Shown in pieces: positions 24,092-41,562 of a stretch of DNA of 64,000 nt (position 1 is the stretch's first letter; every line of letters begins with the position of its first letter). The notes under the pieces are model-generated. The model was not told the DNA's origin. It saw only the letters and a list, made by a program, of their open reading frames with translations, and did no database searches. The position numbers were made by a program, and so were the translations under genes. Location of the stretch: NCBI GenBank assembly GCA_963662715.1, contig OY759724.1, positions 268,670-332,669 on the forward strand, in the 5' to 3' direction. The stretch comes from Candidatus Omnitrophota bacterium (GTDB lineage: Bacteria > Omnitrophota > Gorgyraeia > Zapsychrales > JANLHA01).

Positions 24092-24379
24092 TGAGACAAA
24101 TTGCAATTTAATTTAAGAGACGATTTCAGCTCCAATATTCATTATTTTACCGTTATATTTCCTTCTGGCAAGAATAGTCTTTTGCTTCAAATCTTGCCTT
24201 CGTCTTTGTATCTGATCACGCCGTCCATAATAAACATCGTCCGGTGTCACATTACCAATCCCTTCATGATAACGCCGTGAGTTGTACCAGTGAATAAATC
24301 GCGCGATTTCATCCTCAAGCCGTTCAGGGCTATCCCAGACATGCAGAAGAATCGTCTCCTTGGCGCTTCGATGAAACCG
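24092..24379 (-). mobile_element. Truncated copy of the IS3-family element (3' end of orfB plus right IR)
   Basis: Encodes 89 aa that match the orfB C-terminus at 7106-7372 except for a single substitution (N->D). The terminal TGAGACAAAT is at 24092-24101. Homology to the IS stops near 24380. Confidence 0.8.
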
Positions 24380-24857
24380 CATACTTCCGAGCGATATACT
24401 TGATTTTCTTCCATCTTCTCAGAGCATAAGGCTGAACATCACATTGAGGGCCGAAATAATTCTTGCACTCTTGAAGAACCATATCACAGAGGTCTGCTTG
24501 GATACCTCGAATGAAGGAATGGATGTGAACACCCCTCCTTGACGTATTCCGCTCGCAAATCACAAGGCAATGGATATATCGCTCATAAAACTTCTTGTAA
24601 TCACGGTTGAGGTACTTGAAGAAATGCTTGTACGCATCCTTAGCCTCGGTCTTACCCGTCGCCCTCGGGAAAGTCATCGTTGCGTACAAATCGAAAGGCC
24701 CCAGTTGCTTAATCAGCTTGCCGAATCCCCGTATTCGGTCGTATCTGCTTGTCGTTTCCAACGCTTGCAGTTTTAACAGCTCTAACATATAAAATCCCCT
24801 CAAGGGTGATGATTCATCACGCCTAAATGACTGCATCCAATGTATGTATGTCACCAT
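24380..24857 (-). pseudogene. HUH-superfamily rolling-circle Rep-like protein, 3'-truncated by the IS fragment
   Basis: ORF 24330..24857: motif I-like LYATMTFP, HUH motif GVHIHSFIRG, and a Y-x-x-x-K-Y tyrosine motif (KYIARKY) just before the reading frame runs into IS sequence. Confidence 0.45.
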
Positions 24858-25067
24858 ACATAACGAAGCCTCCTGCGGGAAGAAGCCGCACAGGAGGCTA
24901 AAATCACCACACTTTCACCACGTCAAAAGGCCAAAATCGACCTTTGATGAGGTGAAGATGTCTTGCAATAACTGGATTTAACTTGTAATAATTGTTTCGT
25001 TCTCTCGTCGAGAACTTGTGGATTTGGTGGGAAAGTGTTGGGGCATCACAGGATGCCCCAGAAGATA

Positions 25068-25094
25068 TGGTGGAGGTGCGGGGAATCGAACCCC
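25068..25094 (-). repeat. tRNA 3'-end fragment (T-arm plus acceptor 3' strand plus CCA): att-site remnant, copy A
   Basis: Minus strand reads GGGGTTCGATTCCCCGCACCTCCACCA (T-loop TTCGATT, 3' acceptor, discriminator, CCA). No complementary 5' acceptor strand or anticodon arm follows, so it is a fragment, not a gene. Confidence 0.55.
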
Positions 25095-25196
25095 TATCAA
25101 TTATAAAGGGCTAAAACAAATGGTTTTCGGAAAATTTTTCAAAAAACCACCACATAAAAACCACATGAAATTTTTGAGTGAAAAATTTGACAAAAA

Positions 25197-25219
25197 ATGG
25201 TGGAGGTGCCGGGAATCTC
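25197..25219 (-). repeat. Second, shorter tRNA 3'-end fragment (copy B) in direct orientation
   Basis: Minus strand reads GATTCCCGGCACCTCCACCA (1 mismatch to copy A), 129 bp from copy A. Each copy is followed on its right by the motif CCACATAAAAACCACAT (25150-25168 and 25281-25297). Confidence 0.5.
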
Positions 25220-25295
25220 CATCAAGATGTAAATAATCCTTAAAAAGAAAGTATGTTACAGACATTTTCATCAATTCCCCCACATAAAAACCACA

Positions 25296-26438
25296 TTAAA
25301 TATTCTTGGCTATTCGATAAACCAATGCAAAATCATTTTGTGAAATTTTCTCATTACGCGCCACAAGTGTCCTTACAGCAGTAGCTCCTATTGTCGCAAT
25401 GGCCAATATAAGCCCCCCCACTGTAAATAGCTGTTGTTGCTCTTGTACGACACCTCGTAAGAATGTCGTAATTCCTGCCCAAGCCATTCTGTCACTAAAC
25501 AAATTTTCAAGGAATCTATCAGTATCTCTCCTATCAAGCATTAAAACATCCCCTATTTCATGTTCTACGTTTTGACGAATGAATTTCTCTACATAGACTG
25601 GGAGATTTTCAAGATTGTCTGGAATAGTTAACTCCTGAGCAAGTTGATGACATTTTAAACGGAATCGTTGAATTTCTGGTCCATGTTCATTTAACAGCTC
25701 TATGATGAAATCTATTTTTTCTTTATCAAGCGGATCAAGCCGTGGAGAAAGAATTTGACGAAATAATTCCCATTCTACAATATCTATATCTATATTTTGC
25801 CCAGTTTGGATGGGTTGCATATGAATCGACATTTTTGAAAATAACGTTATAAGATTTTGGTTTGTAAGCAGAATCCTCGCGTTTGCTTTTATAAAATCTT
25901 TAAAAACAAAAAGACGCAAAAAATATGACTTCACAAGCAACTTTTCAACTACCTTTTGATGGACTATCTCATCATAATAGCGATATACTTTTTCCCAATC
26001 TTCATCATACTCATAATATTTTTCGAACAATAAATGCCTCATAAATTCACCGTAAGCATTATACTGATTACAAGACAGTTTTAATTCATCAAAATTAATC
26101 CCCAACATTTCATAAAAACTAGACATTTCATCAATTGCTCTAGAACTAGCCGAATATTTCAACATGCACACAAGAATCTTTTTTAAAGGTTTAAATAAAT
26201 CAACTGTAGTGTTCGATAAATGTTTCATCTGAATCCAGCTATAAAATTGTTTCTCGAATGTATTCCTCCAACTTGGATTACGTAATTCAACAAGCCTCGG
26301 GAAAGGAGAATAATCTAAGGGATATATCACAGGTGTTTGAGTTAAAATGATCGGCCCGTCAAAATACAAAAATGTTGCGCCACTAATCTGCGAGGCATCT
26401 GTGATAGGATCTGGCCATATAAAGGTTGGTGCACTCAT
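25296..26438 (-). CDS. Hypothetical protein with C-terminal TM anchor
   Basis: 380 aa, no recognised domain; C-terminal hydrophobic helix (LFTVGGLILAIATIGATAV). Last gene of the minus-strand array downstream of the integrase. Confidence 0.45.
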   Translation of the reverse strand: MSAPTFIWPDPITDASQISGATFLYFDGPIILTQTPVIYPLDYSPFPRLVELRNPSWRNTFEKQFYSWIQMKHLSNTTVDLFKPLKKILVCMLKYSASSRAIDEMSSFYEMLGINFDELKLSCNQYNAYGEFMRHLLFEKYYEYDEDWEKVYRYYDEIVHQKVVEKLLVKSYFLRLFVFKDFIKANARILLTNQNLITLFSKMSIHMQPIQTGQNIDIDIVEWELFRQILSPRLDPLDKEKIDFIIELLNEHGPEIQRFRLKCHQLAQELTIPDNLENLPVYVEKFIRQNVEHEIGDVLMLDRRDTDRFLENLFSDRMAWAGITTFLRGVVQEQQQLFTVGGLILAIATIGATAVRTLVARNEKISQNDFALVYRIAKNI

Positions 26439-26470: not shown

Positions 26471-27571
26471 TTATACTGAGCTCATTTTTAAAACTTTTGT
26501 TCTTCCCTCTTCCGTCGAGTGAGAATAATATTTAATCAGCACATTAATATCCGTATGGCCGGTAATGGCCATGACATCCCGAATGGGCATATTTTTTAAC
26601 CCGGCCTCCGTGATCAATGAATGGCGAAAATCGTGAGGGGTTACTCTTTTCTTAATTGTTCGTTGGCTGACACTTGCTAGATATTCGCGAAAATGATTAC
26701 TTGATATTTTATTACCTAATGAATTCGGAAACAACCAAATATATCCTTTTTGTCTGAAACTAAATTGTTTAATGACACTAGCCAAATCGTCGTCAATCGT
26801 TTCCAGGACAAACTCCTTTTTGTTTTTTCTGACTTCTGGATCAAGCCGAATTAGAACTGGATTCAGACCACGAAATTTAACATTTTCTTTCTTAACCGAT
26901 AATACCTCCTCGATACGCCAACCAAGCCGAATCAACATATACGTGACACCATAGTATTCAAGACGATGCTGCTTTATAGCTGCAAGGAGCTTTTGCTTGT
27001 CAGTCTTTGTTAACTCCTTGTACTTTTTTTGCATTTGAAAGGGCTTCTTAAACTCAGATAAATATTCACTCACTTCTTTTTTACAATACCCTAAACGCAC
27101 AAGGCGACTAAAAACTCCTTTAAGAGTCCCCAATTCAGAACGCCACCCCTTCTTTCGTCCCTGGTCATTCACCACAAAATTCTTATATTCATTAAAGACA
27201 TCTGTAGTAATCACATTCACATTCTGAATTTCGGGATACTTATCAGGAAGAAACACGAAGAAGAAAGTATTGTAGGTATTTAATGCCCGGCTAATTGTTT
27301 TCTTTCGAAGATTATCCCCTTTTAAATCCCTGATAAATTGTTCCTTTAAAGCATCGAAAGCGATATTTCTCTTTCCTGCTCGTATCTCATCCTTCGAAAT
27401 AACTGTTTGCTGAATCAGCCGTGATTTTTCCTGGTAAGCTTCGTACATTGAAGCTGCTTTAATACGTTTGAAAATTCGCGGGCCTTTGTTGGGAAGCTGA
27501 AAGTTAATTTCAAAGACTCCGTCCTTAATCTTTCTGACACCCAGAAACTTTTTAGACGATTTGTATCTCAA
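26471..27571 (-). CDS. int: Tyrosine-type site-specific integrase
   Basis: 366 aa; catalytic R...HxxR...Y tetrad region (HDFRHSLITEAGL ... ITGHTDINVLIKYYSH). Confidence 0.9.
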   Translation of the reverse strand: MRYKSSKKFLGVRKIKDGVFEINFQLPNKGPRIFKRIKAASMYEAYQEKSRLIQQTVISKDEIRAGKRNIAFDALKEQFIRDLKGDNLRKKTISRALNTYNTFFFVFLPDKYPEIQNVNVITTDVFNEYKNFVVNDQGRKKGWRSELGTLKGVFSRLVRLGYCKKEVSEYLSEFKKPFQMQKKYKELTKTDKQKLLAAIKQHRLEYYGVTYMLIRLGWRIEEVLSVKKENVKFRGLNPVLIRLDPEVRKNKKEFVLETIDDDLASVIKQFSFRQKGYIWLFPNSLGNKISSNHFREYLASVSQRTIKKRVTPHDFRHSLITEAGLKNMPIRDVMAITGHTDINVLIKYYSHSTEEGRTKVLKMSSV

Positions 27572-28284: not shown

Positions 28285-28746
28285 TCAACTACTATCCTTC
28301 TCCATTAAGGCAAGCACTCGTTTCTTGCGGATGACCGCTGACTGCTTTGCATTATTTTTGTTTTCGTCATTAACCTCCGGCGTATGGAACAAATAGGCAT
28401 ATAAAAACGCATCAATTAGTTTTTCGATCCTGTCCACCTTCCCGGACAACCTGTCATTCAAGGTTGTAATGCTGGTGCAGATGATTTCACGGGTTTCTTC
28501 TATCGTCGAATGAAAAGTAGCACCGGATTTATTTACGTCTACCAATCCCAACTCATTTAATAATTCCTTATGTTCAAGCGTCATTTGGGCATAGTTGATG
28601 ATGGCATTGCGCATAAATTCTGAAATTGAAACACCCTGTTCCTGCGCCAGCATGACGAACAGTTTATTCTCATCGGCAGTGACTCTAACGCCTATGGTTT
28701 TTGTTTTATGGGCCGTAGATTTATTAGTCATAATCTTCTCTCGCAA
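28285..28746 (-). CDS. Ribbon-helix-helix relaxosome accessory protein (MobC-like)
   Basis: 153 aa; the N-terminal RHH-like segment (TIGVRVTADENKLFVMLAQEQGVSISEFMRNAIINY) resembles MobC/TraJ-type accessory proteins. Confidence 0.45.
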   Translation of the reverse strand: MREKIMTNKSTAHKTKTIGVRVTADENKLFVMLAQEQGVSISEFMRNAIINYAQMTLEHKELLNELGLVDVNKSGATFHSTIEETREIICTSITTLNDRLSGKVDRIEKLIDAFLYAYLFHTPEVNDENKNNAKQSAVIRKKRVLALMEKDSS

Positions 28747-29270
28747 TCTGTTTGCTTAAACAAAAAAACAGGCTGCAAAACATACTTAACTTGCACCGGC
28801 CCCCAATAACGGGAGTCCCAGCTATTTGGTTTATAATCCGACATCAACCAGTACTGTTTTTCTTTCAATCTAATCGGAACATCATAATCTCGAAGGACAC
28901 GCCTTCCATGCGAATCTGTATCGAGCAGAGGATACCCGTTATAAACCTTACTGTTAATACGTATACTATCCTGTGAAACGTCAACCATATCACCCGGCAC
29001 AGCTACGATCTTTTTAAAAACCGGATTGATTCCGGTTGAACACCATCCCGTCTGAAGATATCCTCGCTCAAGTCCAAGCTCGGCCAATTCCGGCGTCAGA
29101 CAAGTGGCTGCCAGCATACCCCTTTCGGCATCAGCTGAAACCTTTCGATATATTCCCAAAGGCATACTCTCCGACAAATTTACACGAAATCCATAAACAC
29201 CAAGAACAAGACAAACTCCGAGAATCGTTATCAAAAAGACCGTAATAAATCGTAAAATTCTCTTCATCAT
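28728..29270 (-). CDS. traF: Conjugative signal peptidase TraF (S26 family)
   Basis: 180 aa; N-terminal TM, S26 catalytic Ser box (SESMPLGIY) and the conserved SWDSRYWG box. Confidence 0.8.
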   Translation of the reverse strand: MMKRILRFITVFLITILGVCLVLGVYGFRVNLSESMPLGIYRKVSADAERGMLAATCLTPELAELGLERGYLQTGWCSTGINPVFKKIVAVPGDMVDVSQDSIRINSKVYNGYPLLDTDSHGRRVLRDYDVPIRLKEKQYWLMSDYKPNSWDSRYWGPVQVKYVLQPVFLFKQTDCERRL

Positions 29271-31207
29271 AAAAGCATCCTGTCGTCTTGCTCTTTTGGT
29301 TCTTCCTGTACCCCATACAATGCCTCAACCGGATTTTCTTCCGCTGTCTGTTCCGTCTTCTTTTCACGATACTCAGGAAATGCAATTTGTTTCATGTCTA
29401 TGCTAAGACGATCTGAATGTTCCGGAGCCGGAATCCTCGCACGGGAATTCAACTCATGATCTTGGTAGTATTTCATTTTCTTCCCATGGATCGGCGGCAT
29501 GTTCGACACAAAAATCAGTGTGTCTTCAGGCGGCAATCGCATGGTTTCATCGACCGTAACTAACGGCCTTTGGGCTTCTTGTGTCCCCTGTGAAATACCG
29601 GCATTCACTAATTGTGTACGTTTTCTCGTCAGATTCTTCGAATGTTTAATCACCGTAGACGCTCCGGCCATATGGGACAGGTTTTGAGCGGTTTCCAGTT
29701 TATTCGGCGCAAAGGCAATTCTAACCCGACAATTTCCTGTGATCGACTCGTCCCGCCCATACGTCGAAAACAATTGGCTTAAATCCTGCAAGACAATAAA
29801 CCCTTTAAGTCCATACCCAGCCATGTAGGCAAACGCATCCTGAATAAATTCCATACGGCCCAAAGCAGCAAACTCATCGAGCATCAATAAAAGTCTGTTT
29901 TTGTGTTTCCTGTTAATGCGCCCGTCTTTGAGGATCATTTTGTCTTCGACCAACCGTCTTACAATCTGATTCAAAATCAGGCGCACCACCGGCTTCACCC
30001 TCGACATATCTGAAGGTGGAATCACCATATAGAGGCTTACCGGTTTTTCATAGTCCATCAAATCTATTATTCGGAAATCCGATACAGAAGTGTTAGCCGC
30101 AATGATCGGGTCACGATACATCGCTAAAAAACTCAAAGCCGTTGAAACTATTCCCGAGCGTTCTTCTGTAGATTTGTTTAGAAGTTCCCGTGCGACACTA
30201 CTGATAACCGGATGTGTTTTCGTAGCATTGCCGCTTACCGGATTTATCCACCCTCTCTCTTGCTCAGGATCATGGATTGTTTGCAACATAGATTCAAAGG
30301 TGTCTTCAACTGTAGACTCAGGATTAGATAAAAAATTGGTAACACCTGCCAAGGTCTTATCTTTCTCAGCATAAATCACGTGAAGAATCACCCCGGTCAA
30401 CAGGTTATAGGCAGATAACCGCCAATGATCATGCTTTCCTTTACCGTCAGGATCGACAATCATATCCGCGATATTTTGGACATCCCTGACCTCATTCTCT
30501 CCGAGGCGCACCTCATACAAAGGATTCACCCGTACACTTGAACCATCGTTACTGGTAGGATCAAATTTCATAACAAAACTTTTCAATTTTTCTTTCCTCC
30601 ATCTAGCTGTCAACAGCCAATTTTCAGACCGGATATCAAGAACGATAACGCTTTCACACCACGATAATAAATTCGGAACAACCAGCCCAACACCTTTACC
30701 GGAACGTGTCGGAGCAAAACAAACGACATTCCCCTCATCGTCAAATTTCAAATATTCGGTTCTTCGGTCATGTTCAATGGCCCCTATATATAGACCTTGT
30801 TTATTCCCAACAAGCCCGGCTTGACGAATCTCTTTATAATCAGCCCAGTGTGCGCTCCCGTGTACATCCGTCTGAGTATCGAGCGTCCGTAAATAATTCA
30901 TAAATATCGCTAAAGCCATGGATACCCCAACTGTAGCAATAAAAATCTGCATTCCTTGTCCTAGTGTTTTATGGTCAACAGGATAATCCCTGCGCATCAG
31001 CTGCCACTTGAAAATATCAATCGGATTATAAAATCTTCCAATCAACGGTTTTCCTAATTCAGGCCGGTAATTTAGCTTCTTAGCAGTAAATTGGGTTGCT
31101 GTACAAAGGCCAAAGACAATACCCAAAAATATCACTACAAGACAGGCCAAGCTCAAAAAACCTGTATGTCGTTTCGGAAGTTTATATAACGGCATATTGT
31201 CTAACAC
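29267..31207 (-). CDS. traG: Type IV coupling protein (VirD4/TraG family)
   Basis: 646 aa; N-terminal TM segments, Walker A (APTRSGKGVG), TraG/TrwB-type all-alpha and NBD regions. Confidence 0.9.
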   Translation of the reverse strand: MLDNMPLYKLPKRHTGFLSLACLVVIFLGIVFGLCTATQFTAKKLNYRPELGKPLIGRFYNPIDIFKWQLMRRDYPVDHKTLGQGMQIFIATVGVSMALAIFMNYLRTLDTQTDVHGSAHWADYKEIRQAGLVGNKQGLYIGAIEHDRRTEYLKFDDEGNVVCFAPTRSGKGVGLVVPNLLSWCESVIVLDIRSENWLLTARWRKEKLKSFVMKFDPTSNDGSSVRVNPLYEVRLGENEVRDVQNIADMIVDPDGKGKHDHWRLSAYNLLTGVILHVIYAEKDKTLAGVTNFLSNPESTVEDTFESMLQTIHDPEQERGWINPVSGNATKTHPVISSVARELLNKSTEERSGIVSTALSFLAMYRDPIIAANTSVSDFRIIDLMDYEKPVSLYMVIPPSDMSRVKPVVRLILNQIVRRLVEDKMILKDGRINRKHKNRLLLMLDEFAALGRMEFIQDAFAYMAGYGLKGFIVLQDLSQLFSTYGRDESITGNCRVRIAFAPNKLETAQNLSHMAGASTVIKHSKNLTRKRTQLVNAGISQGTQEAQRPLVTVDETMRLPPEDTLIFVSNMPPIHGKKMKYYQDHELNSRARIPAPEHSDRLSIDMKQIAFPEYREKKTEQTAEENPVEALYGVQEEPKEQDDRMLL

Positions 31208-31244
31208 CTTCTTTCAAGAAATCTAGAACCCCAAAAATAAAACA

Positions 31245-31290
31245 GGCCCACCCCGAAAAAAGCCCGGCGCCGGGAATAGGCCTGCTTTAA
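31245..31290 (-). terminator. Putative intrinsic terminator between relaxase and coupling-protein genes
   Basis: Perfect 12-bp GC palindrome CCCGGCGCCGGG (31263-31274), followed on the minus strand by CTTTTTTCGG. Confidence 0.4.
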
Positions 31291-31340
31291 CAACATATGG
31301 GCGAACATCGACGCTGTCACCCTACCCGCGTGATCTGCTC

Positions 31341-32792
31341 CTACCTGATTTTTTTATTGATAGACATATTTGGGGAAAGAATCCCAATTTTCTGAAAATT
31401 GTCCAAGCGGTCTTTCATTGTCTTAATAAACTTCCCCCGGAATGTCGAAGTGTTCAAATTCACAAGATCCTCGCGATTCCGTTTTAAATAATCAATCGCA
31501 TACTGGTCAGCCTTTGTGAAGGACTTTGTCCTCTCAATAGTACTTAGCGGCCCCCAATTGGTGAACGACAAATAAGTTTTCTTGACGCCATTCTTTTTAT
31601 AAGACTTGACTTGCAGATGCACGGTATCTCCGTTTTTAATCTTTTGCCTATCCCTCTGTCTGATCATCTCATTCTTAGGATGGGTATAATGAATTTTTCC
31701 ATCCAAACCTTCAATCAACATGTAGCGTTTGTCGTTTTGTTCATTGTGCAAGCCAAAGCCTACCACACGTCCGACAACATGCTGGCCTTCTTTAAGCTGG
31801 GTATAAACCAACGGTAACGAAGGATCAGAAATATGTTTGAGATGCATGGTCTTTCGTTTGATAATATCCTGTGTCATCTGATAGGTCTTAAGACCGTCTT
31901 CCAAGTCTTCGGATACATTCCAGGTCAGGACACCGGTTTTACTGACAAATCCCATTGCCTCCAAGTATTGAAGACGTCCTAAAATCTGCAATCTCTTCTC
32001 TGTTTCAAAAAAACTTTCAGGAAGCTTTCCCTTAAACGTTAATCTACCGGCATCATCTTTCATACGCAGAATATCCCTATCAAGTTCTGTCAACCTGTTT
32101 TGAGAAATCGTCTTTTCCCGGCGTCTTAAAATATCACTGTTTAATCGGACACCTATTTGCCGAGTAGCCTCTTCCCTTGAGCGGAAACGTATTCCTTTCT
32201 TAATATAATTTTTGTTCATAATAAGTTCATTTCCCATCTCATCCTTTCCCCTTAAAACAATATGCACATGCGGGTCATCGGTGTTGTAATGATCAATCGC
32301 CATCCATTCCAATCGCGTCCCCAAATCCGATTCCATTCTCTGCATAAGATGACGGACATGCACCTTTAAATCCATACGCTCTGCCTGTTCGGGAGAAACA
32401 ATAATCTTAAACACATGCCCGTCACCTTCCTTTTGCCAGGCATCAAGTTTTTGTGATAAATCAACCTCTTCTTCCTCTGCTGAAAATCCCTTGCCACGCC
32501 TGCCCTCTATCTGCGCACCCTCACGTTCCAAATACCGACCATGCGCTTTCCACTGTCCGGAATGATGATTCACCGCGTAAGAAACCTTCACCACACTATT
32601 TTGAAAATTCCTCCCAGGATAAAAAAACCGTCCGCTCCCCTTAATTTCACTAGTACCTTCCCGTGTTTTATTAACAGCAGCTTTAATTAACCAAAGCTGT
32701 CCAAAAGATGTTGACTTCTCAAACCTTCGCCTTGAAGAACGGACGCGCAACAGCAACTCATTTATGTCATCTTTATTTTTGTGCAGAACCAT
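31341..32792 (-). CDS. Conjugative relaxase (VirD2/TraI-like HUH nickase)
   Basis: 483 aa; 3-His metal-binding motif HYNTDDPHVHIVLRG and N-terminal Tyr-containing region; sits between the VirB11 and VirD4 genes. Confidence 0.8.
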   Translation of the reverse strand: MVLHKNKDDINELLLRVRSSRRRFEKSTSFGQLWLIKAAVNKTREGTSEIKGSGRFFYPGRNFQNSVVKVSYAVNHHSGQWKAHGRYLEREGAQIEGRRGKGFSAEEEEVDLSQKLDAWQKEGDGHVFKIIVSPEQAERMDLKVHVRHLMQRMESDLGTRLEWMAIDHYNTDDPHVHIVLRGKDEMGNELIMNKNYIKKGIRFRSREEATRQIGVRLNSDILRRREKTISQNRLTELDRDILRMKDDAGRLTFKGKLPESFFETEKRLQILGRLQYLEAMGFVSKTGVLTWNVSEDLEDGLKTYQMTQDIIKRKTMHLKHISDPSLPLVYTQLKEGQHVVGRVVGFGLHNEQNDKRYMLIEGLDGKIHYTHPKNEMIRQRDRQKIKNGDTVHLQVKSYKKNGVKKTYLSFTNWGPLSTIERTKSFTKADQYAIDYLKRNREDLVNLNTSTFRGKFIKTMKDRLDNFQKIGILSPNMSINKKIR

Positions 32793-32796
32793 ATAT

Positions 32797-33072
32797 TCAC
32801 CTCATCATTTTGTTAATAGAAATCTTTTTACTTCGGGTAAAATCAACCTTCAATCCTTGTTGAGTTTGGCGGACGGCAATCACGTTCCCTACCTTGAATT
32901 TCTTTACATAATCGCCTTTGACCCTCAATATCCATTTCTTCTCACGATCCTCAAGAACAATATCGGATATCTTTTGTATTTTTTGATCAGGAGATTGCCG
33001 AATACTCTTGATTGTTCCCCTAACCTGCCTCCCAGGATGAAGCTCAATTTTTTTCATTTTTTCTTCTGCCAC
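32797..33072 (-). CDS. Hypothetical small basic protein in the transfer operon
   Basis: 91 aa, Lys/Arg-rich; starts 16 nt after the VirB11 stop, and its own stop overlaps the relaxase start. Confidence 0.4.
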   Translation of the reverse strand: MAEEKMKKIELHPGRQVRGTIKSIRQSPDQKIQKISDIVLEDREKKWILRVKGDYVKKFKVGNVIAVRQTQQGLKVDFTRSKKISINKMMR

Positions 33073-33088
33073 GACTTTATTCCTATGC

Positions 33089-34108
33089 TTAATTCGTCAA
33101 CTCAAACAAGCTCACGATACGATTAAACGACATGTCCTGTCTCATTTTTATATTTTGTACGATATATCTTTCTCTCCTTCGATCATATCCTTGTACTTTG
33201 AGAATTTCTTTAATCGTCCTTCCTGCTAAAGTCCCCGGTGCCCTTGCGATAAAGATAATTACATTGATCGTATCAGCAATAACCTCCGGTAAAGGTATGA
33301 CATTACCTTCACGGATCAACTGCTCAATTCGGCGAAGCCCGCCTATAGCATGACTGGCATGTACCGTACATGCCCCAGGATGCCCCGTATTCCAAGCCTT
33401 AATCATGGTGTTAGCCTCTTTACCTCTGACCTCACCGACTACGATACGGTCAGGATTGTTTCTTAAACAATTACGAAGAAGATCATCCATATTCCGATGA
33501 CGGCAACTACGGAACGCCAGCCTTTTTTCTATACGACACTGCAACTCAAAAGTGTCCTCAATAGTAATAATCCGCTCCTCAGGAAATTGTCGTCCCATAT
33601 CATCAAGGATAGCGTTAAGTAATGTTGTTTTTCCTGACCCGGTACTCCCGGCTACAAGAATCGTCTGCCTGTTTCCAATCACTTCCTGAATAAAGTCCTT
33701 CTCATCAGCAGAGATAATTCCTTGCCCCACATATTCCTGCAAAGTTACAACTCTTGAAGCCGGAATCCTGATGGTAAAACACGGGTGTGTCACAATGGGT
33801 GGAATCTGACCTTGGAACCTTAACAACCGCCATTCATTATCAATACAAAACGGAATCTCTCCGCTTATATCCGGATTGTCCCGGTCAACAATCGCATCGG
33901 TTATCCCGGCCACCGTACAGATAATGTTATAGGCCCGTGATGCATCAAGAGTCCCGCATTTTCTGACTCCTTCAAACGTATCTGCCCACACAATCCCATC
34001 CGGATTAAGCATCACGTCCGTTACTCTATGATCAGAAATCACAGACAATAAATCTTCACCAAGGACAGATACAAATTTCTCGTTATTAAAATGACCATTC
34101 AAAATCAA
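33089..34108 (-). CDS. virB11: T4SS ATPase VirB11/TrbB
   Basis: 339 aa; Walker A VAGSTGSGKTTLLNA and the Asp/His boxes of the VirB11/GspE-like family. Confidence 0.9.
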   Translation of the reverse strand: MILNGHFNNEKFVSVLGEDLLSVISDHRVTDVMLNPDGIVWADTFEGVRKCGTLDASRAYNIICTVAGITDAIVDRDNPDISGEIPFCIDNEWRLLRFQGQIPPIVTHPCFTIRIPASRVVTLQEYVGQGIISADEKDFIQEVIGNRQTILVAGSTGSGKTTLLNAILDDMGRQFPEERIITIEDTFELQCRIEKRLAFRSCRHRNMDDLLRNCLRNNPDRIVVGEVRGKEANTMIKAWNTGHPGACTVHASHAIGGLRRIEQLIREGNVIPLPEVIADTINVIIFIARAPGTLAGRTIKEILKVQGYDRRRERYIVQNIKMRQDMSFNRIVSLFELTN

Positions 34109-34112
34109 TCCC

Positions 34113-35375
34113 TCACGGTGTTAAAATGATGTCTTTTAAAACCAAGACGTTAAATTTATAACCAGGCCGTATTTCAATGGTCGGTTGAATATTGATATTT
34201 TTTCTCATCATCTCGGTCGTGACCTGAGTCAATTGCTGACCTATACCGGAAGCGACCTTATCTCTTGCTTCGTCACTATCTGAATCATCATTCAACAATT
34301 CATACCCGGCCCCAACCAGACTCAGTAAAAACGCATTACCGTAAATCCGCCAATAATGATGATTGACTTTATCTTCAAACCCAGCGTATCCGGCAGAATC
34401 AACTCCCTGCATCTTATCCAGGTTTAAACTCGACCCATCAGGAAATATAAGTCTCGTCCAAATCACAAGGGCACGATTTTGTCCCAGGCTTACCTGACTG
34501 TTATACTGGCCGATTAACCTTGCTCCCTGCGGAATAAGCACATGCTCCCCAGTCACAGTATCGTAAATGTTTTCCCGAACCTGTGCGATAATGTTTCCCG
34601 GAAGATCAGAATTAATTCCTGTCATAAGGGCCGCTGGAATAACCGTACCAGCCTTTATTTCAAATTCTGAAATAGGTTTCTTCTTGGTGTGCATTAAATA
34701 CTCCCCGGCATACCCGGCGGATTGGATGAAATCTTTTTTACTGCCCTGCATATTCTGATCCTGATAACCAGCCAAGCCTTCGGGATATCGTGACGGCGAT
34801 GATTCTTTTAATTGTGAAACCTTGTTATCAGAAGACATCGCCGTTGTATTATTCTCAAATTCATTCTCCCCGTTCCTGCCGACTAAGACCTCAGCCGGAG
34901 ATTTTACCGCCCTTAAATAGAACTTGCGTTCCTCAATCTGCATCTGTTGCTCCAGCCGCAATAATTCCAATTGTGTTTTCCGTTCCTCTTCTTCATAATC
35001 CTGCTCAAACGAATTCTTTGGTTGCAAAACAACCGGATTATCTTCAAAAGACACATTGTCAGATTTATCCTCATTTGTATTTTCTGTCTCTTTCGTGCTA
35101 TCATCCGGCACATGCGTTTGGCGGATATCATCATACTTTTTATCCAAAAACCATTCATCGTCCGAAACCTTTGAAATACTGCCTAACTGCGCCTGGTCAA
35201 GCCGGCTTTCCTTTTTCTGGCGTCTTTGTTCCTGTTTCCCGGCGACGTTAAAAATTAGATAAACAACTACACATATCAAACATGCTAAGGCCATGATAAG
35301 AGGGGTCTTTCTGATTTTGACAATACCGCTCGGAACAGGTTTAAGAATATTGGGGCCGTCTAATCGGTCACTCAT
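34113..35375 (-). CDS. virB10: T4SS protein VirB10/TrbI
   Basis: 420 aa; N-terminal TM, acidic/Pro-containing linker, C-terminal TrbI beta-barrel region. Confidence 0.75.
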   Translation of the reverse strand: MSDRLDGPNILKPVPSGIVKIRKTPLIMALACLICVVVYLIFNVAGKQEQRRQKKESRLDQAQLGSISKVSDDEWFLDKKYDDIRQTHVPDDSTKETENTNEDKSDNVSFEDNPVVLQPKNSFEQDYEEEERKTQLELLRLEQQMQIEERKFYLRAVKSPAEVLVGRNGENEFENNTTAMSSDNKVSQLKESSPSRYPEGLAGYQDQNMQGSKKDFIQSAGYAGEYLMHTKKKPISEFEIKAGTVIPAALMTGINSDLPGNIIAQVRENIYDTVTGEHVLIPQGARLIGQYNSQVSLGQNRALVIWTRLIFPDGSSLNLDKMQGVDSAGYAGFEDKVNHHYWRIYGNAFLLSLVGAGYELLNDDSDSDEARDKVASGIGQQLTQVTTEMMRKNINIQPTIEIRPGYKFNVLVLKDIILTP

Positions 35376-36439
35376 CGTTTACCCCCCTTTACAACAGAAA
35401 TAATTTCCTTACTCTTTTTTGTTCTTAATACCAGCACTCCCTTATCAAACAACCGGTCTATCTCAAACACTAGATTTCCGTTCTCTGCTCGCTTGGTTCG
35501 GTAGTTGACAATTTCATACTCGTTATCATTCCCCACTACGAAAAATACCGGAAGCTCATAGGAATCAACTATCTTGGGGAACTGAATAAAAACTTTTTTC
35601 CCATCGTCGTATATCCTGTCCGGCCACCAGGGCTGTCTCTTTTTTCCTTTAACCTCGTAGTAAAAATTATAGTCATCAAACATATAAATCCTCGAATAAT
35701 GATCTTTATCTGGCCGGTTAGATTGTGTTTCTGTGGACAATTCGGGTAAATCAACTTTTATGGAATGTTCCTGCGGATAAAAAAATCCGATGTATGGGGT
35801 ATACTCCCCTTCCGGTACGGATTTTAAAACAATGTAATAAAACCTCCTGTTTGTAGAAATAGCAATCGTTGTTTCCATTTTTTCGGTCACAAGCGGCTTG
35901 ACGATCACATGCTGTTTGAACGTCTCCCCATCACCGATATGCGAAACACCGATCCACCACCGCTGCGTATCTCCGGGATTAAGGTCCATCACCCGTTCTC
36001 CTGCTTCCAGTTCAATATGACATGTTCGCAATGGAACACACACCAGTTCAGGCTGTGATAAGCTGTATGGAAAAAGAATTTTATTTCCTACAATAATAGG
36101 CTCTACTTTCCCATTCTTTTGATAGTTCAAGATAGAAGCCTTAACAGCATTGTATTCACCGACAGGCCTTGCCTTGATCCCCAAAGCTTTCACGTCCACC
36201 GGATCATTTTTAAGAAACTCCTGCACCATCGAATTATTCAATGCTTCCTGATTTTTTTCTTGTTGTTTTTTCTCCGCCAACTCTTCCTTTCTTTTTTCCC
36301 TCATAGACCGGGTCAAGGACTCAACGGCAACGTCTGTTTTCTCTGTCCATAAAAGCGATCTCTCGCATGTTGCACACCCGCTAAATCCAAATATCAGCGC
36401 AATAAATATACTCACTCTTTTCATTCTCATCATCCTCAC
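35372..36439 (-). CDS. virB9: T4SS protein VirB9/TrbG (lipoprotein)
   Basis: 355 aa; signal peptide with lipobox (FGFSGC); position and size appropriate for VirB9. Confidence 0.7.
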   Translation of the reverse strand: MRMMRMKRVSIFIALIFGFSGCATCERSLLWTEKTDVAVESLTRSMREKRKEELAEKKQQEKNQEALNNSMVQEFLKNDPVDVKALGIKARPVGEYNAVKASILNYQKNGKVEPIIVGNKILFPYSLSQPELVCVPLRTCHIELEAGERVMDLNPGDTQRWWIGVSHIGDGETFKQHVIVKPLVTEKMETTIAISTNRRFYYIVLKSVPEGEYTPYIGFFYPQEHSIKVDLPELSTETQSNRPDKDHYSRIYMFDDYNFYYEVKGKKRQPWWPDRIYDDGKKVFIQFPKIVDSYELPVFFVVGNDNEYEIVNYRTKRAENGNLVFEIDRLFDKGVLVLRTKKSKEIISVVKGGKR

Positions 36440-36446
36440 CCCCGCA

Positions 36447-37124
36447 TTAAAGTGTTTTTGACCAAGAAATGCTTTTAATAAATATCCCGAAAGGATTAGC
36501 CGGATTATCCCTTAATGTCTTTGGTGAATCAGGCGGGATTTGCGTAACAATAAATAATCCCTTCCAGCGGCAACGCTCAATTTCCGTGTTATTCATATCA
36601 CGCTCAGTTTCCTCCCATTCAACAATATAGGTATTCTCGGTTTGCTTTAGAAAGGTTAAAGGCTTAACCTGGACAGACTTTTTCCTTGCCATATCAAAAG
36701 GATTATTCTCCTGGTAATATTCATTCAGGAAATTCCTGACAGGCGGGGCAGCCAAACGGTAAACATCATCAAAATTTTTACGCATCGCTTCCGGGTCTGA
36801 AATTATTGACCGGGCCATTTCGATAAAATCATATAAGTAGGCACGAATAATTTTGTCATCTGCCATTTCTGTTTTTTGTGCAGGACCAGAAGCCACAGCC
36901 CGTCCTGTTTGGTCAACTTCGACAATCCAGGGAACTATTTCTCTTCTTAACCCTGTGGCAATCAGTCCTATCGCCAAGACAAAAATTATCAGCAATTCAA
37001 AGCAAGCGGCAATTTGCCAATTGTGCTTCTCCTGAATCGGCTGATTAAATAAGGCATTCCATTCCTTTCGAATATTGTGATAAGGATTCTTTTGATCCTT
37101 AGATTGTTTATTTGGTGTTTCCAT
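36447..37124 (-). CDS. virB8: T4SS protein VirB8/TrbF
   Basis: 225 aa; single N-terminal TM and NTF2-like C-terminal domain; located between the VirB6 and VirB9 genes. Confidence 0.7.
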   Translation of the reverse strand: METPNKQSKDQKNPYHNIRKEWNALFNQPIQEKHNWQIAACFELLIIFVLAIGLIATGLRREIVPWIVEVDQTGRAVASGPAQKTEMADDKIIRAYLYDFIEMARSIISDPEAMRKNFDDVYRLAAPPVRNFLNEYYQENNPFDMARKKSVQVKPLTFLKQTENTYIVEWEETERDMNNTEIERCRWKGLFIVTQIPPDSPKTLRDNPANPFGIFIKSISWSKTL

Positions 37125-38283
37125 GATTGTCTCCTGTATTTAAACCTCGTCTGGTCCCTCTACCTAAACCAGCTCCTGCTGATAATGTCTTAATATAATT
37201 CGCAACCTTCCCGCCGCCGGTTCTTGAAATAGATGCCTGCATCCTCTCTTTAAATTGACTGCCGGCTGCTGAAGCCAGCGTCTTAATCGTTGTGCCCGTA
37301 GCTATACCTATTTTGCCTATAGGTGTTGCTCCCGGAGTCATCTGGGCCTTTGCAACTCCGACCTTTGTGGCTTCATAAACAGCCGCACCTGCACCGACCG
37401 TTTCCCGTGCTGCCCCTGTCGTGCTGTGGATTAAAGTTCGTGCTCCGTATAGACCGCCTAAAGCAGTACCGGCAGCTATCGTTCCAATACCGTGTCCAAA
37501 ATTCATATTAATTGATCCGGTTAATAATGATGCGCCCATATCCGGCACCTTCAACGCCATAAAAAGATAAGTCAAACTTGCCGCCAGAATAGAAAAGTAA
37601 GACTCAAAAAGATTGCCCTGTGCATTTTTAACAACATTGATCCAATTGGTCGTCAATGTCTCGCCTAACCCCACAATCAAGGTTAGGAATAAAAGTTTTA
37701 ATCCAATGTGAACAGCAGTCACAAAATACCGTTCTGCAAACTGTCTCGTCCATTGGCTCCCTGCAAAGCCTAAAACAACTATCCCTCCGGCTAAAATTAT
37801 TTTCCCTCCGATTAAGGTTAGGGCCATTTCAATAGAAATAAGTAAAAACGAAAGGAATACAAGAAGAGCAACAATCACATTAAAGATCGCAGCCCCGACC
37901 TTTTCCAGTAATCCGCCCGCAAAGGATGTCGTGAGCATAGTGCTCGCCAAATCGACTCCCCGTCTTGCCACATCGCCGGGATACAATTGACTTACGCCCA
38001 CCATCTGCTCCCCTGCCTCGCGCAAGCTGTTATAGATAGCTGGTATCCATGTGTCGGCATGATCAATCACCATGAGAAAGAATGACAGCACCAAAATCTT
38101 TTTGGCAAACTCAACCATAAGATTCGTCGGGTCGTCTCTGTTGAGCATCCACACGATTCCGGCCCAAATGATTTGAATGACAGCCAGCAACATAAAAAGG
38201 TCATGCGCAATATTAATTGCGATCACTTCCCAATTAAAAATATCATTGTTGTACTGGGCTAATAAATTATCGAAAATCTGCAT
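37108..38283 (-). CDS. virB6: T4SS protein VirB6/TrbL
   Basis: 391 aa polytopic membrane protein with a Gly/Thr-rich C-terminal tail typical of TrbL/VirB6. Confidence 0.75.
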   Translation of the reverse strand: MQIFDNLLAQYNNDIFNWEVIAINIAHDLFMLLAVIQIIWAGIVWMLNRDDPTNLMVEFAKKILVLSFFLMVIDHADTWIPAIYNSLREAGEQMVGVSQLYPGDVARRGVDLASTMLTTSFAGGLLEKVGAAIFNVIVALLVFLSFLLISIEMALTLIGGKIILAGGIVVLGFAGSQWTRQFAERYFVTAVHIGLKLLFLTLIVGLGETLTTNWINVVKNAQGNLFESYFSILAASLTYLFMALKVPDMGASLLTGSINMNFGHGIGTIAAGTALGGLYGARTLIHSTTGAARETVGAGAAVYEATKVGVAKAQMTPGATPIGKIGIATGTTIKTLASAAGSQFKERMQASISRTGGGKVANYIKTLSAGAGLGRGTRRGLNTGDNHGNTK

Positions 38284-38366
38284 CGGATAACCTTTTCCTT
38301 CTTAGACACTTCTTCCTTTTCTTAACAAATCCAGAATATTTATTAATAAAGGGGAGTTTATAAGAA

Positions 38367-39089
38367 TCAATACCCAGGGGTATTTCCCGCCGTAAACGGT
38401 ATTTCATGAAAAAACTCTTCAGCAGCGGCATTGTCCGCGGCTTCCTTATTAACCTGATGCGCCATATAGGCATTTTGGGCCTGTATCTGTGACATATTAA
38501 GCTGACGAAGTTTTTGTAGCTGTCCTACCATTTCATTAGCGATCATATTCGCTGCCTGTAAAGCCTGGGTCTGGCCTTCCGCACTATCTGAAAGATTTCG
38601 TATTGTTTTCATAGTGGCATCTTCTGTCTGAAACTGATTGCTTTGTAATCCCGCTGCCGCAAAAGATCCGGCAATCGAATCCAGTGTTGTCTGCGACCAG
38701 TCCTGATAAGATTGAATATAATCTACAGGCGGGTCATACCCAGGATACTTTGCTTTAAACACCTGTTCGATATTCTGCAAGGTATAAGACATGGCCTGCC
38801 CTTGCTTGACAATCTGCTGAAGTTGCTGCAAAGCCTGGATTGTTTTTCCCCACTCGCTTTGAGGAAACGTGGCAATACTTTTAAACATCTCGATTTGATT
38901 CTGGATCATCTGAATTTGATTAACTACCATCTGTGCCTGTTTGGCTACTGAAGCAATCAACTCAGCATGATTCAATAACTGTGTCATTTCCGTCGCATAG
39001 ATAGCATAGGAATTTTTAATAGGAACAATGCTAAAAATAAATATAAAAATCATATGTGTTATACGTTGATGTAATAGTTGTGTCTTCAT
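38367..39089 (-). CDS. T4SS protein TrbJ/VirB5-like
   Basis: 240 aa; signal peptide, Gln-rich coiled-coil (QQLQQIVKQGQ...), located between the VirB4 and VirB6 genes. Confidence 0.6.
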   Translation of the reverse strand: MKTQLLHQRITHMIFIFIFSIVPIKNSYAIYATEMTQLLNHAELIASVAKQAQMVVNQIQMIQNQIEMFKSIATFPQSEWGKTIQALQQLQQIVKQGQAMSYTLQNIEQVFKAKYPGYDPPVDYIQSYQDWSQTTLDSIAGSFAAAGLQSNQFQTEDATMKTIRNLSDSAEGQTQALQAANMIANEMVGQLQKLRQLNMSQIQAQNAYMAHQVNKEAADNAAAEEFFHEIPFTAGNTPGY

Positions 39090-39093
39090 CGTC

Positions 39094-41562
39094 TTACCCC
39101 CTCCTGTTTGTTAAACTTTCATAAACCTCATCCCATAAACCAGCCTCTTCATTCAAGCCATACTCACTCAACCAATATTTCACCCACGCCTCACCATGTT
39201 TTTGCTCCAAAGATTTAATTCGTTTGATATCTTCTAAAGAAGTCTTTCCCATAAAACTTAAAAATGCTTTCTCCAACTCCAAATCTATTAAGCGCATCCC
39301 TAAAGGAGAAGTGTAATAATAATGTTTCTTCGCAATCGCATTGGCAATGATCCCAATTTGCGTTTCATTTAGCCCTAAAGTTTTATACGCTTCTTCTCCT
39401 GTGGGGGATGCGGCTTGAGGATTGGGTAAATAGACTTTGACCGGACAAGATTCAAGGATCACATCTTTGATCGAAGAATGAATAATGTCTGTGACATGCT
39501 GAGTACAAAAAACCACACATGCATTAGCCTTGCGCAGTTCACGAAGCCAGATTTTGAGTTTTTCTCTAAACATTTGATCATCAAAGACCGTCCATGCTTC
39601 ATCAACCGCGATAAGTGTCGGGGCGCCGCTTAATCGCCGTTCAATCTGGTGAAACAGATAAGATAAGACCGGAATCGAAAACCGTTTTTCCTCTTCCATG
39701 AGCTTTGAGATTTCAAATACCTGGAAATGTCCATCCTGTAAGCTGTCATGTGATGCATCCAGCAAGTGCGCCATAACTCCCTTTTGGGTTGAGACGAACG
39801 GGTCAAGTGCTTTGCGTATTTCAGTGTTTTGAATGTTTAAACAAAAGTTCGAAAGTGTTTTCTCTTTATCTGACCGCAAGGCATTTATGGCATTACTGAT
39901 CGCAATACGCTTCTCCGGGTTCATTTCAACCCCGGCTAATACGATCAACTCTTCCATCCATTCGCAGGCCCATCGTTTTTCGCTCTCAACAGCAATGTCT
40001 TTTAACGGAGAAAAGGTCAGGTGACTGTCATCATCCAGGATGGGATAATGACGCGCACTACACGCCTTGACTAAAGCAAACATACTATTTCGTTTATCAA
40101 AACAAAATACCTGTGCTCCAGGGTAACGCAAGAATTGAACGCACATAAGGGAAAGTAATGTTGATTTACCTGATCCGGTCGGCCCGCAAATCATAGTATG
40201 CCCCACGTCATCCACATAATTGTTAAACCGGAAAGGCGCAGCTCCTTGCGTCGAAGCATAGAATAAGGAAGGGCTGTTTTTCTCAAGTCGAGGATTAGGA
40301 TTGTACTCCTGTCCTGTCCATGTTCCGGCGAGCGGCATCAAATGAGTCATATTCAATGTATGTATGAGCGGCTTTCTGACATTACGAGCACTATCACCCG
40401 GCAAACTTCCAAGATACGCTTCAATAGCATTAATTGTTTCCACACGGGCCGGAAACCGTTTATCCGTTAGTAAATCACGGACAATTTTAACGCGCCGTTG
40501 ACATTCACTCTCATCCTCGCAAATGATAACAATGACCGATGAAAAATAACCGTAACGAACACCCCCTGCCTGAGCGATAGTCATAGCCTGATGAGCGTCC
40601 GCAGCCTTTTCGGCAGCTTCAATATTGCCATACTGACTCTCAGAGCCAGGCGAGATAATTTGCAGGATGATATTCTTTAAATTAAATTGTTTATTGTGCC
40701 ATTTGAGCAATACCTTTTTGATTTCTTGCTCCGCATCAACCGGATCAAGGACAATAAAACGGATGGAGAACCGGTATTCAAAAGGCAAAGACATCAAGGC
40801 ATTGCCAAGCATCTCGCTATGACTTTCCGAAGGGAACCCAACCACAGCAACCACACCGATATATTTCCCATCAATTTGCGGATGTATCCCACCGGTGAAG
40901 TCATACCCGCCCAGCAGATAATTAAGAAAACCACCCTGCACATCGGCAAAATCAATGTATCGTGCAGTAATACAATAGTGAAGAAATCCCTGCATTTGTG
41001 TAGATGACATCTGTTCAACGTTTAACCGTGCACCGCTAAGTCCGGATTCCACCTCAAGAATGACCTGCTTAAATTCTCGGCACAAAGATTCCATGTCTCT
41101 TTGCTTAACAGCATCGATTTTGTTTTTCTTCTCAGAAGTGACAAATAGCTTTTGAAACTTCCTGTCCTGTAAAGCCGAAGGTTTGTAGGTCAACGTTAAA
41201 ACGTAGACCGTTTCAAAATGCCTCTGTGCCGACTCAAAATTACTTTTTCGCTCACAATCAATAAGCCAGGATGTAGCATCAGGGAAAGAATTGTCATGAG
41301 GATATTCTGTAACAGGAATACGAATGGCATTAACATTGATAACCCAGCCTGTGCGCAGACTGCCCAGGACTGCGTTAACCTGAGAACATAGCGCATCTTT
41401 ATCCTGAGCAGAGGACGAATCCAGATCAGGGCCGTGATAGTAAAATCCGGCCATTAAACTTCCGTCTTTATTGAGCAGAATACCCTCGTCTACAAAACCG
41501 AAGTAATTGATAAGATCAGGGAATCCTTTAAAATTATTTTGTGCTTCACTGTTTTTCTGCAT
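39094..41562 (-). CDS. virB4: T4SS ATPase VirB4/TrbE
   Basis: 822 aa; Walker A GPTGSGKS, Walker B region; canonical size. Confidence 0.9.
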   Translation of the reverse strand: MQKNSEAQNNFKGFPDLINYFGFVDEGILLNKDGSLMAGFYYHGPDLDSSSAQDKDALCSQVNAVLGSLRTGWVINVNAIRIPVTEYPHDNSFPDATSWLIDCERKSNFESAQRHFETVYVLTLTYKPSALQDRKFQKLFVTSEKKNKIDAVKQRDMESLCREFKQVILEVESGLSGARLNVEQMSSTQMQGFLHYCITARYIDFADVQGGFLNYLLGGYDFTGGIHPQIDGKYIGVVAVVGFPSESHSEMLGNALMSLPFEYRFSIRFIVLDPVDAEQEIKKVLLKWHNKQFNLKNIILQIISPGSESQYGNIEAAEKAADAHQAMTIAQAGGVRYGYFSSVIVIICEDESECQRRVKIVRDLLTDKRFPARVETINAIEAYLGSLPGDSARNVRKPLIHTLNMTHLMPLAGTWTGQEYNPNPRLEKNSPSLFYASTQGAAPFRFNNYVDDVGHTMICGPTGSGKSTLLSLMCVQFLRYPGAQVFCFDKRNSMFALVKACSARHYPILDDDSHLTFSPLKDIAVESEKRWACEWMEELIVLAGVEMNPEKRIAISNAINALRSDKEKTLSNFCLNIQNTEIRKALDPFVSTQKGVMAHLLDASHDSLQDGHFQVFEISKLMEEEKRFSIPVLSYLFHQIERRLSGAPTLIAVDEAWTVFDDQMFREKLKIWLRELRKANACVVFCTQHVTDIIHSSIKDVILESCPVKVYLPNPQAASPTGEEAYKTLGLNETQIGIIANAIAKKHYYYTSPLGMRLIDLELEKAFLSFMGKTSLEDIKRIKSLEQKHGEAWVKYWLSEYGLNEEAGLWDEVYESLTNRRG

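Follow-up and report, generated by a model that had tools for sequence, protein, structure and literature searches.

Two tmRNA-gene-like 3'-end fragments with arm-type repeats probably mark the distal end of a decayed tandem array beside a putative conjugative element

The window analyzed in this work is a stretch of 64,000 nucleotides of contig OY759724.1, from a Candidatus Omnitrophota bacterium, and contains two short 3'-end fragments of a tRNA-like gene, each accompanied by the same 17-mer and both lying to the left of a tyrosine integrase gene. We propose, as the probable explanation, that integrative elements inserted in tandem at the 3' end of ssrA, the gene for transfer-messenger RNA (tmRNA), and that the region is what is left at the distal end of their array, now decayed, with a ghost of about 100 bp between its members. 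The array would comprise element A, a putative integrative conjugative element to the right, ghost B, and an older element C to the left. The features on which the argument depends are the following:

25280..25296, minus strand, arm-type site pair 2 (ATGTGGtttttATGTGG on the minus strand), predicted P-arm binding sites of the integrase, abutting the stop codon of a 380-aa open reading frame (ORF) and 62 nt from core 2
25198..25217, minus strand, core 2, 20 nt that most probably derive from the ssrA 3' end (GATTCCCGGCACCTCCACCA on the minus strand) and would form the attR core of the right-hand conjugative element
25167..25197, minus strand, 31 nt separating arm pair 1 from the CCA end of core 2, the putative sole remainder of the proximal side of ghost B
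25150..25166, minus strand, arm-type site pair 1, with the same sequence as pair 2, at a distance of 62 nt from core 1 and assigned as the putative P arm of ghost B
25068..25094, minus strand, core 1, most probably a copy of the ssrA 3' end (GGGGTTCGATTCCCCGCACCTCCACCA), matching the ssrA end of an Omnitrophota locus, L079
24905..24923, minus strand, third arm-type motif (acGTGGTgaaagTGTGGTg) with an 11-bp period, found 146 nt past the CCA end of core 1 in the 3' direction

The sequence-only reading, made earlier from the letters of this DNA, had described two tRNA-like 3' ends of 27 and 20 nt in direct repeat on the minus strand, with one mismatch, and we confirmed both; their starts are 130 nt apart, and a repeat finder returned the same 130-nt period. 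Core 1, read directly, is TGGTGGAGGTGCGGGGAATCGAACCCC on the plus strand, and on the minus strand it runs through T-stem, T-loop (TTCGATT), T-stem, the 7-nt 3' strand of the acceptor stem, the discriminator A and CCA. Core 2 is TGGTGGAGGTGCCGGGAATC on the plus strand and differs from core 1 at the single position 25210, where it has C for G. With up to three mismatches allowed, the 20-mer was found in the 64 kb at these two sites only (shuffle expectation, 0.00). The absence of a 5' half was borne out as well: ARAGORN, which the reading had proposed as a check for an intact tRNA, called no tRNA or tmRNA gene over the 64-kb window, Rfam gave no match at gathering thresholds, and an E-value search of the repeat region returned weak partial tmRNA matches only (E = 0.0027 and 4.5). 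The 27- and 20-nt 3'-end fragments of a tRNA or tmRNA gene without its 5' part make up the junction signature of Islander-type islands. A 13-mer resembling a T-arm at 46735-46747 was dropped, its context not being tRNA-like.

That each fragment is accompanied by a 17-mer proved exact. The sequence CCACATAAAAACCACAT occurs at 25150-25166 and 25280-25296 and nowhere else in the window, against a shuffle expectation of 0.24 matches even allowing up to three mismatches; on the minus strand it consists of two direct ATGTGG repeats with an 11-bp period. The gap between the 17-mer and the 20-mer is exactly 62 nt in both units. Alignment of the two units, another check that had been suggested, showed a conserved core (95% identical) and 17-mer (100% identical) joined by 62-nt spacers that are about 40% identical; the pair is therefore neither a recent duplication nor an assembly stutter. 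Viral contigs held eight matches to the 17-mer, six of them from a single unrelated phage locus and none with an ssrA core nearby, and these were judged to be due to chance or irrelevant.

A search of the GTDB species representatives found no close relative of the integrase, and a large protein collection returned the window's own integrase together with relatives at most 55% identical. A metagenome scan for the pattern of core plus 17-mer and a megablast of 24300-26500 against phage and plasmid collections gave no match. A profile search of metagenome contigs supplied 52 loci, and 41 family loci extend at least 100 nt beyond the integrase stop codon. In 29 of the 41, a direct RGTGG-N5-9-RGTGG pair lies within 100 nt after the integrase stop and on the same strand, with a period of 11-13 nt; the background rate for these loci is 0.0027 pairs per 100 nt. 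The layout that emerges is integrase stop, RGTGG repeat pair, a fixed spacer of about 32 or about 63 nt, and the 3' fragment of a tRNA or tmRNA gene (tDNA). With the spacing taken as the distance between the repeat pair and the first base of the core, which begins within the 3' part of the T-loop, seven loci fall in the class of 30-33 nt (L129, L135, L140-L142, L163, and L165), and L147, L148, L175 and both units of the window fall in the class of about 63 nt, with L127 close to it. The two classes differ by about three helical turns, and their spacers are otherwise unrelated; unrelated members of the family thus keep a constant geometry around unrelated spacers.

Locus L127, whose integrase is 48% identical to that of the window, has the order smpB, intact ssrA, a 10-kb island, integrase, an ORF, GGTGGTGGAAATGGTGTTGGAATG, spacer, a 17-nt fragment CCCCGGCACCTCCACCA, and a terminator hairpin; the repeat pair after the ORF is a GGTGG pair, and the ssrA and the fragment of this locus both read CCCGGCACCTCCACCA. 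Fragments of the ssrA-type end are also found in L129, L174, and L175, and 3' fragments of various tRNAs in other members. The 17-mer is best read, from its sequence and position, as the variant of the family RGTGG pair that belongs to this element. The family layout of integrase, RGTGG pair, spacer, and tDNA fragment leads us to regard the 17-mer as a pair of arm-type sites and each unit as an attR-type junction; repeated motifs distinct from the core stand at conserved positions of the attachment (att) arms in the 29 loci mentioned above. The earlier interpretation as att remnants of successive integrations with arm-type sites is hence supported by the family layout, the integrase, and the missing 5' half, and the choice that it had left between tandem insertion and repeated arm sites resolves, given this layout, to both. 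Three members of the family, L141, L142, and L165, have two copies of a tRNA 3' fragment 140-190 nt apart downstream of the integrase, and no second arm motif lies in between; stacking of remnants would thus appear to be frequent in this integrase family.

A look for the 17-mer at other places had also been proposed as a check; exact copies were confined to the two sites already known, and a related third motif was found at 24905-24923. The pattern GTGG-N7-GTGG has three occurrences in the 64-kb window (0.79 expected), all on the minus strand and within the 390 bp of 24907-25294. Among the family loci, the tDNA-proximal junction is included in just two, L127 and L128; both have a repeat pair 143-146 nt beyond the tDNA end, and we infer from this offset that the third motif is the P'-arm site of an older element, C. 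Fragment 1 would thus stand between a P-type arm, 5' of it, and a P'-type arm, 3' of it, the arrangement expected where two tandemly stacked elements meet. For the same reason of offset, a truncated Rep gene and an insertion sequence (IS) fragment found to the left probably belong to an older element at the same site, as the sequence-only reading had supposed.

In the direction of ssrA, the proposed array would run as ssrA, element A, arm pair 2, 62 nt, core 2, 31 nt, arm pair 1, 62 nt, core 1, a hairpin, the P' motif, the truncated Rep, and the IS fragment, and the intact ssrA would have to be on the minus strand, past the window's right edge. Element A would contain VirB/Trb genes, a relaxase, a coupling protein, an Xis-like gene, the integrase, and the 380-aa ORF, and its attR would be formed by arm pair 2, the 62-nt spacer, and core 2. 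Ghost B (25095-25197) would be made of the 31-nt stretch and an attR-type module of its own, namely arm pair 1, its 62-nt spacer, and core 1. Element C, the third and older member, would be left with its P' arm (the hairpin and the motif at +146) and the truncated Rep. We attribute the two units to two elements of the same specificity because their arm motifs and geometry are identical but their spacers are unrelated, because unrelated members of the family also hold this geometry around unrelated spacers, and because a second arm-plus-core module was found in none of the 15 family loci analyzed for the core. The 31-nt stretch is unlike the sequence after core 1 and unlike any other locus. We also considered ghost B and remnant C as copies of one element type and rejected the idea, since the sequences after core 2 and core 1 are unrelated.

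Tyrosine integrases of the lambda and Tn916 type are heterobivalent, and the binding of both arm and core sites by one protein is the established model for them. By analogy, the catalytic and core-binding domains of the integrase would act at the ssrA-derived core, and its N-terminal domain would bind the ATGTGG repeats in the arms; the intasome would carry out integration as attP x ssrA, and excision as attL x attR with the help of the small helix-turn-helix (HTH) protein described below. Each integration would rebuild ssrA with the 3' end brought by the element and push the old end downstream, such that one fragment is left per event. In attR, the DNA 5' of the crossover comes from the element. 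The C for G difference gives core 2 the type of T-stem seen in L127 and not that of L079 and the host, and the difference would therefore belong to the att copy of A itself. The strand exchange of A may be placed 3' of 25210, within GCACCTCCACCA.

Several points weigh against this reading. The closest integrase in the collections is 55% identical, and a single unit would be no more than a possible ancestral state of this element. The intact ssrA and the other end of the element fall outside the window, so that orientation and order of the array rest on the general rule for tDNA islands. The shrinkage of B to about 100 bp, which the model assumes, matches no integrase-catalyzed reaction; excision between the two cores by the integrase would have deleted ghost B cleanly. 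A distal core fragment for element C was not found left of 25060, at relaxed stringency. Foldseek matches of the N-terminal domain of the integrase were not significant, with E = 0.8 for an AP2 domain and E = 2.3 for the N-domain of Tn916 Int. Members of a tandem array in the strict Islander sense have an integrase each, and here we found one integrase gene, a B of about 100 bp, and a C with neither integrase nor distal fragment, for which reason we call the array decayed. Ghost B is not a cis-mobilizable element (CIME) either: it lies between core 2 and core 1, and its proximal side is the 31 nt devoid of an arm motif, which makes a functional attL unlikely.

It is also conceivable that both arm-plus-core units are now part of the conjugative element. 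The ghost would then have been captured by earlier accretion, excision could take place at either core, the circular form would have a double core, and the dual attR would serve for alternative excision products or for cis-mobilization of the remnant. The identical 17-mers and the family-typical 63-nt geometry are in line with this, so the same integrase should recognize both units, and the accretion of att-bounded neighbors lacking an integrase has been documented in other systems (PMC3146451). We nevertheless hold this account to be unlikely, considering that the doubled module was absent from the 15 loci referred to above and that a double core within attP would invite self-deletion; it overlaps, besides, with the decayed array and does not contradict the origin that we propose for the two units. 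A further version, slightly less probable still, would have a working double attR with either core used, two excision products, and accretion under way, in a clade where spacings of either about 32 or about 63 nt would mean that the intasome is built with two different geometries.

We then return to the decayed array and to the identity of its target. The acceptor strand of the fragment, CACCUCC, pairs with GGGGGUG via a G3:U70 wobble, and this wobble is the alanine identity element common to tRNA-Ala and tmRNA. The exact 24-mer GGGGTTCGATTCCCCGCACCTCCA was scanned across GTDB with one genome per species, and ARAGORN was run on all 118 loci returned. In 85 of them (85 of the 94 with a called gene) the 24-mer is covered by a tmRNA gene, several of these belonging to metagenome-assembled genomes (MAGs) of Omnitrophota; nine are covered by tRNA-Ala(CGC), and for the remaining 24 no gene was called, either because the locus ends cut in or because the fragments were displaced. 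The ssrA of L079 and fragment 1 agree over their final 28 nt, CCA and the next T counted, and L079 has in common with the window an IS and another gene at 78-84% nucleotide identity. The best named relatives of the window's PtsI, about 61% identical, are in Omnitrophica and Aureabacteria MAGs. The fragments are, most probably, 3' ends of ssrA rather than of an ordinary tRNA, as the sequence-only reading had taken them to be; the distribution of the 24-mer and the match to L079 correct it on this point. A tRNA-Ala gene as the target would agree with the nine matches, which also count against ssrA, and with the shared alanine acceptor stem, but those nine genes are from high-G+C Actinomycetota-type MAGs, all without an encoded CCA, whereas both fragments of the window have CCA and T. 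The 85 tmRNA genes, Omnitrophota loci among them, and the use of ssrA by the family members L127, L129, L174, and L175 make this target quite improbable.

In another Omnitrophota MAG, L067, the ssrA 3' end at 3380-3420 reads ...CACCTCCATTT instead of CCACCA, and ARAGORN calls no gene; an islet appears to have taken the place of the last bases of ssrA.

A single att arm of 130 bp that was duplicated locally in tandem, with later divergence of the copies, would account for the exact 130-bp period and for the same distance from core to motif in both units. The spacers, however, have an identity near random for A+T-rich DNA, and saturated divergence of the spacers that spared 37 nt would demand extreme selection; independent members of the family, moreover, show the same constant geometry around unrelated spacers. 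We consider such a duplication very improbable. Chance similarity or an assembly artefact can practically be dismissed on the shuffle expectations for core and 17-mer given above (both with up to three mismatches) and on the differing spacers, which speak against a collapsed or stuttered repeat; the contig from which the window comes is 3.36 Mb long.

The DNA to the left of core 1 contains, in addition to the third motif, the following features:

25040..25059, minus strand, G+C-rich hairpin (GGGGCATC-ACAG-GATGCCCC) with no U tract, separated by 8 nt from the CCA end of core 1
25023..25043, plus strand, TTGGTGGGAAAGTGTTGGGG, like the P-arm motif of L127 (GGTGGTGGAAATGGTGTTGG) but in the opposite orientation, overlapping the hairpin
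24381..24857, minus strand, rolling-circle Rep-like gene, N-terminal 159 codons with an HIH motif, cut off by the IS fragment
24093..24380, minus strand, final 288 bp of an IS, inverted relative to the full copy, whose stretch 7105-7392 it matches at 99.65% identity

The fold of 24990-25100 has z = -3.3, and a terminator scan makes no call at the hairpin, which is possibly a terminator or processing signal for ssrA derived from an element or from the host. The Rep fragment gave a weak match to PF23343 (1.8e-4) and to the replication initiation family phrog_3584 (0.003), and would be cargo of the older element C. The full IS lies at about 5893-7392 on the plus strand (orfA, 6031-6363; rve transposase, 6353-7372), and together with the inverted 288-bp fragment it brackets a 16.7-kb block of chromosomal-looking genes, those left of the fragment being a UvrA-like ABC protein, an ABC transporter, a DEAD helicase, and PtsI. 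The IS pair suggests a recent IS-mediated rearrangement or deletion beside the att region. A deletion joining Rep to the interior of the IS would probably have removed the rest of Rep and the distal part of C, with its integrase and distal core.

To the right of arm pair 2, from 25296 to at least 45.6 kb, all the genes are on the minus strand and the region reads as a conjugative element, two small HTH proteins included:

25296..26438, minus strand, 380-aa ORF between the integrase gene and the att arm, without Pfam or PHROG match and a singleton in 90% clustering
26471..27571, minus strand, tyrosine integrase (PF00589 at 1.6e-18) with a SAM-like core-binding region and an N-terminal domain of about 70 aa
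28067..28249, minus strand, 60-aa HTH_17-like protein, candidate excisionase, whose homologues directly precede the integrase gene in most of the family loci retrieved
28285..45611, minus strand, conjugation module, with a NikA-like ribbon-helix-helix protein, TraF-type S26 peptidase, VirD4/TraG coupling protein, MobA/VirD2-type relaxase (DUF3363), and, in the remainder, VirB11, VirB10/TrbI, VirB9, VirB8, VirB6/TrbL, VirB4, and ArdA

The fragments had been described as lying next to the integrase. The integrase is indeed to their right, but the adjacency is not direct, as the 380-aa ORF intervenes; in L127 an unrelated ORF of 269 aa holds the same position. Profile matches of the integrase include solved integrases and Xer recombinases. 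Its N-terminal 75 residues are conserved (GVR..G.YEINFR...KRIKA.S..EA) and gave no match to a Pfam arm domain. An AlphaFold2 model of the N-terminus has strands at residues 12-16, 19-25, and 32-38 plus a helix, with a predicted local distance difference test (pLDDT) score of 79, and this predicted topology of three strands and a helix is that of known arm-binding domains. The 60-aa HTH_17-like protein is a likely excisionase. The relaxase belongs to PF03432/DUF3363 and the coupling protein to PF02534; relaxase, coupling protein, VirB4, mating-pair-formation genes, and integrase make up the gene set of an integrative conjugative element of mating-pair-formation type T (MPF-T), and a tyrosine integrase lies inside the island, as in Islander islands.

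Other observations were made within or beyond this module. A 43-bp unit is present in two tandem copies, 88% identical, at 44435-44519, intergenic within the element. A 2155-aa protein of the RHS/teneurin type with a YD-shell and a laminin-G domain is encoded at 47093-53560 on the minus strand, and after its gene small ORFs, including a PEP-CTERM protein, occupy 53622-55734; the element, or else a further island, may carry the RHS/YD-shell protein as a toxin. At 56643-60418 on the minus strand, between the conjugation genes and the right end of the window, a Schlafen/AlbA_2 plus HATPase_c_4 protein beside an 880-aa AAA_21/AAA_23 ATPase looks like a defence-type gene pair.

A second arm-like motif, GGTGCCC-N4-RGTSCCC, was found in the window at 5357-5374 and 1912-1929, both on the minus strand, one copy being exact and the other having a mismatch (0.00 expected). 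Copies of this type are also present at 6019-6036 and 7208-7225 of L079 and at 3490-3507 and 4448-4465 of L067, and in these two Omnitrophota MAGs the pair brackets an islet of 1-1.4 kb without integrase, directly 3' of ssrA. In the window, the pair brackets 1930-5356, with a 346-aa ORF and an MBOAT gene, and no ssrA core fragment adjoins it. We considered synteny of this MBOAT gene with a 477-aa ORF downstream of the L079 ssrA and rejected it, the two not being homologous. A 279-aa ORF at 1092-1931 on the minus strand, with no Pfam match, is 77-79% identical in nucleotides (63-68% in protein) to genes about 5 kb 3' of ssrA in L079 and L114; its neighboring genes are not conserved in comparison with those loci, and it may be a mobile or ssrA-linked gene.

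Nothing here overturns current understanding. With the reading of a decayed array, one boundary of a conjugative element of some 20-40 kb or more would be fixed and ssrA named as its target, and about 1.7 kb on the other side of the junction would be dead mobile DNA and not host sequence. For an uncharacterized clade of tyrosine integrases that target tRNA and tmRNA genes, the analysis offers a testable att architecture (Xis-like gene, integrase, RGTGG pair, spacer of 32 or 63 nt, and a core starting from the T-loop), which is the kind of information required to reuse such integrases as site-specific tools. The wider interest lies in this family-wide architecture, with its two quantized spacings, and in the conserved module of Xis and integrase. 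The findings also provide evidence for VirB-type conjugative elements in Omnitrophota-like bacteria, in which ssrA appears as a busy integration hotspot; a literature search gave, among its ten top-ranked matches, no paper tying Omnitrophota to conjugative elements.

Insertion of elements by tyrosine integrases in the 3' part of ssrA, with restoration of the gene and a displaced 3' fragment, is textbook knowledge. The Islander catalogue gives the tmRNA gene as the target with the highest enrichment in islands and also lists tandem arrays (PMC4383910). The case proposed here resembles the Islander ssrA islands in its tyrosine integrase, its target at the ssrA 3' part, the expected restoration of the gene, the displaced fragment at the distal end, and the tandem array. 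It differs from them in that the second and third members would be remnants without an integrase, whereas Islander tandem members have one each, and in that its integrase clade lacks a characterized member. In Dehalococcoides, tandem ssrA islands are bounded by 20-bp ssrA repeats, and members without an integrase have been explained by accretion or decay (PMC3146451). The likeness to the window lies in those members without integration modules, proposed to be accreted or fixed; however, the Dehalococcoides islands have a large serine recombinase, DsiB, beside attL and are not conjugative (PMC3146451), while the window has a tyrosine integrase at the distal end, arm-type sites, and a full type IV secretion system.

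With lambda Int and Tn916 Int, the system would share direct repeats distinct from the core in both att arms at fixed distances and a small HTH gene resembling an excisionase as partner. In the predicted model, a fold of three strands and a helix at the N-terminus, in front of the core-binding and catalytic domains, may be a further likeness, although its structural match was not significant; the RGTGG/ATGTGG arm motif has no sequence relation to the lambda and Tn916 sites. The ICESt1/ICESt3-CIME elements of Streptococcus thermophilus are stacked related elements with internal att sites and integrase-less remnants that are possibly co-mobilized. Similar to them, related elements would be stacked here at a single att site, but the target (the fda 3' end in Streptococcus), the phylum, and the type of conjugation are different, and the remnant of about 100 bp, without a P' arm motif, is unlikely to be a functional cis-mobilizable element. 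The Tn4371 family comprises VirB/Trb-type (MPF-T) integrative conjugative elements of Proteobacteria with a tyrosine integrase at one end. The conjugation genes of the window follow those of this family (TraF S26 peptidase, TraG/VirD4, MobA/VirD2-type relaxase, TrbB/VirB11, TrbE/VirB4, TrbL, TrbF/VirB8, TrbG/VirB9, and TrbI/VirB10), unlike its Omnitrophota-like host, its integrase, which is not closely homologous, and its ssrA target. The phenomenon as such is known; in this instance it involves an integrase from an uncharacterized clade and, in a host that resembles Omnitrophota, a conjugative element of the VirB/Trb type.

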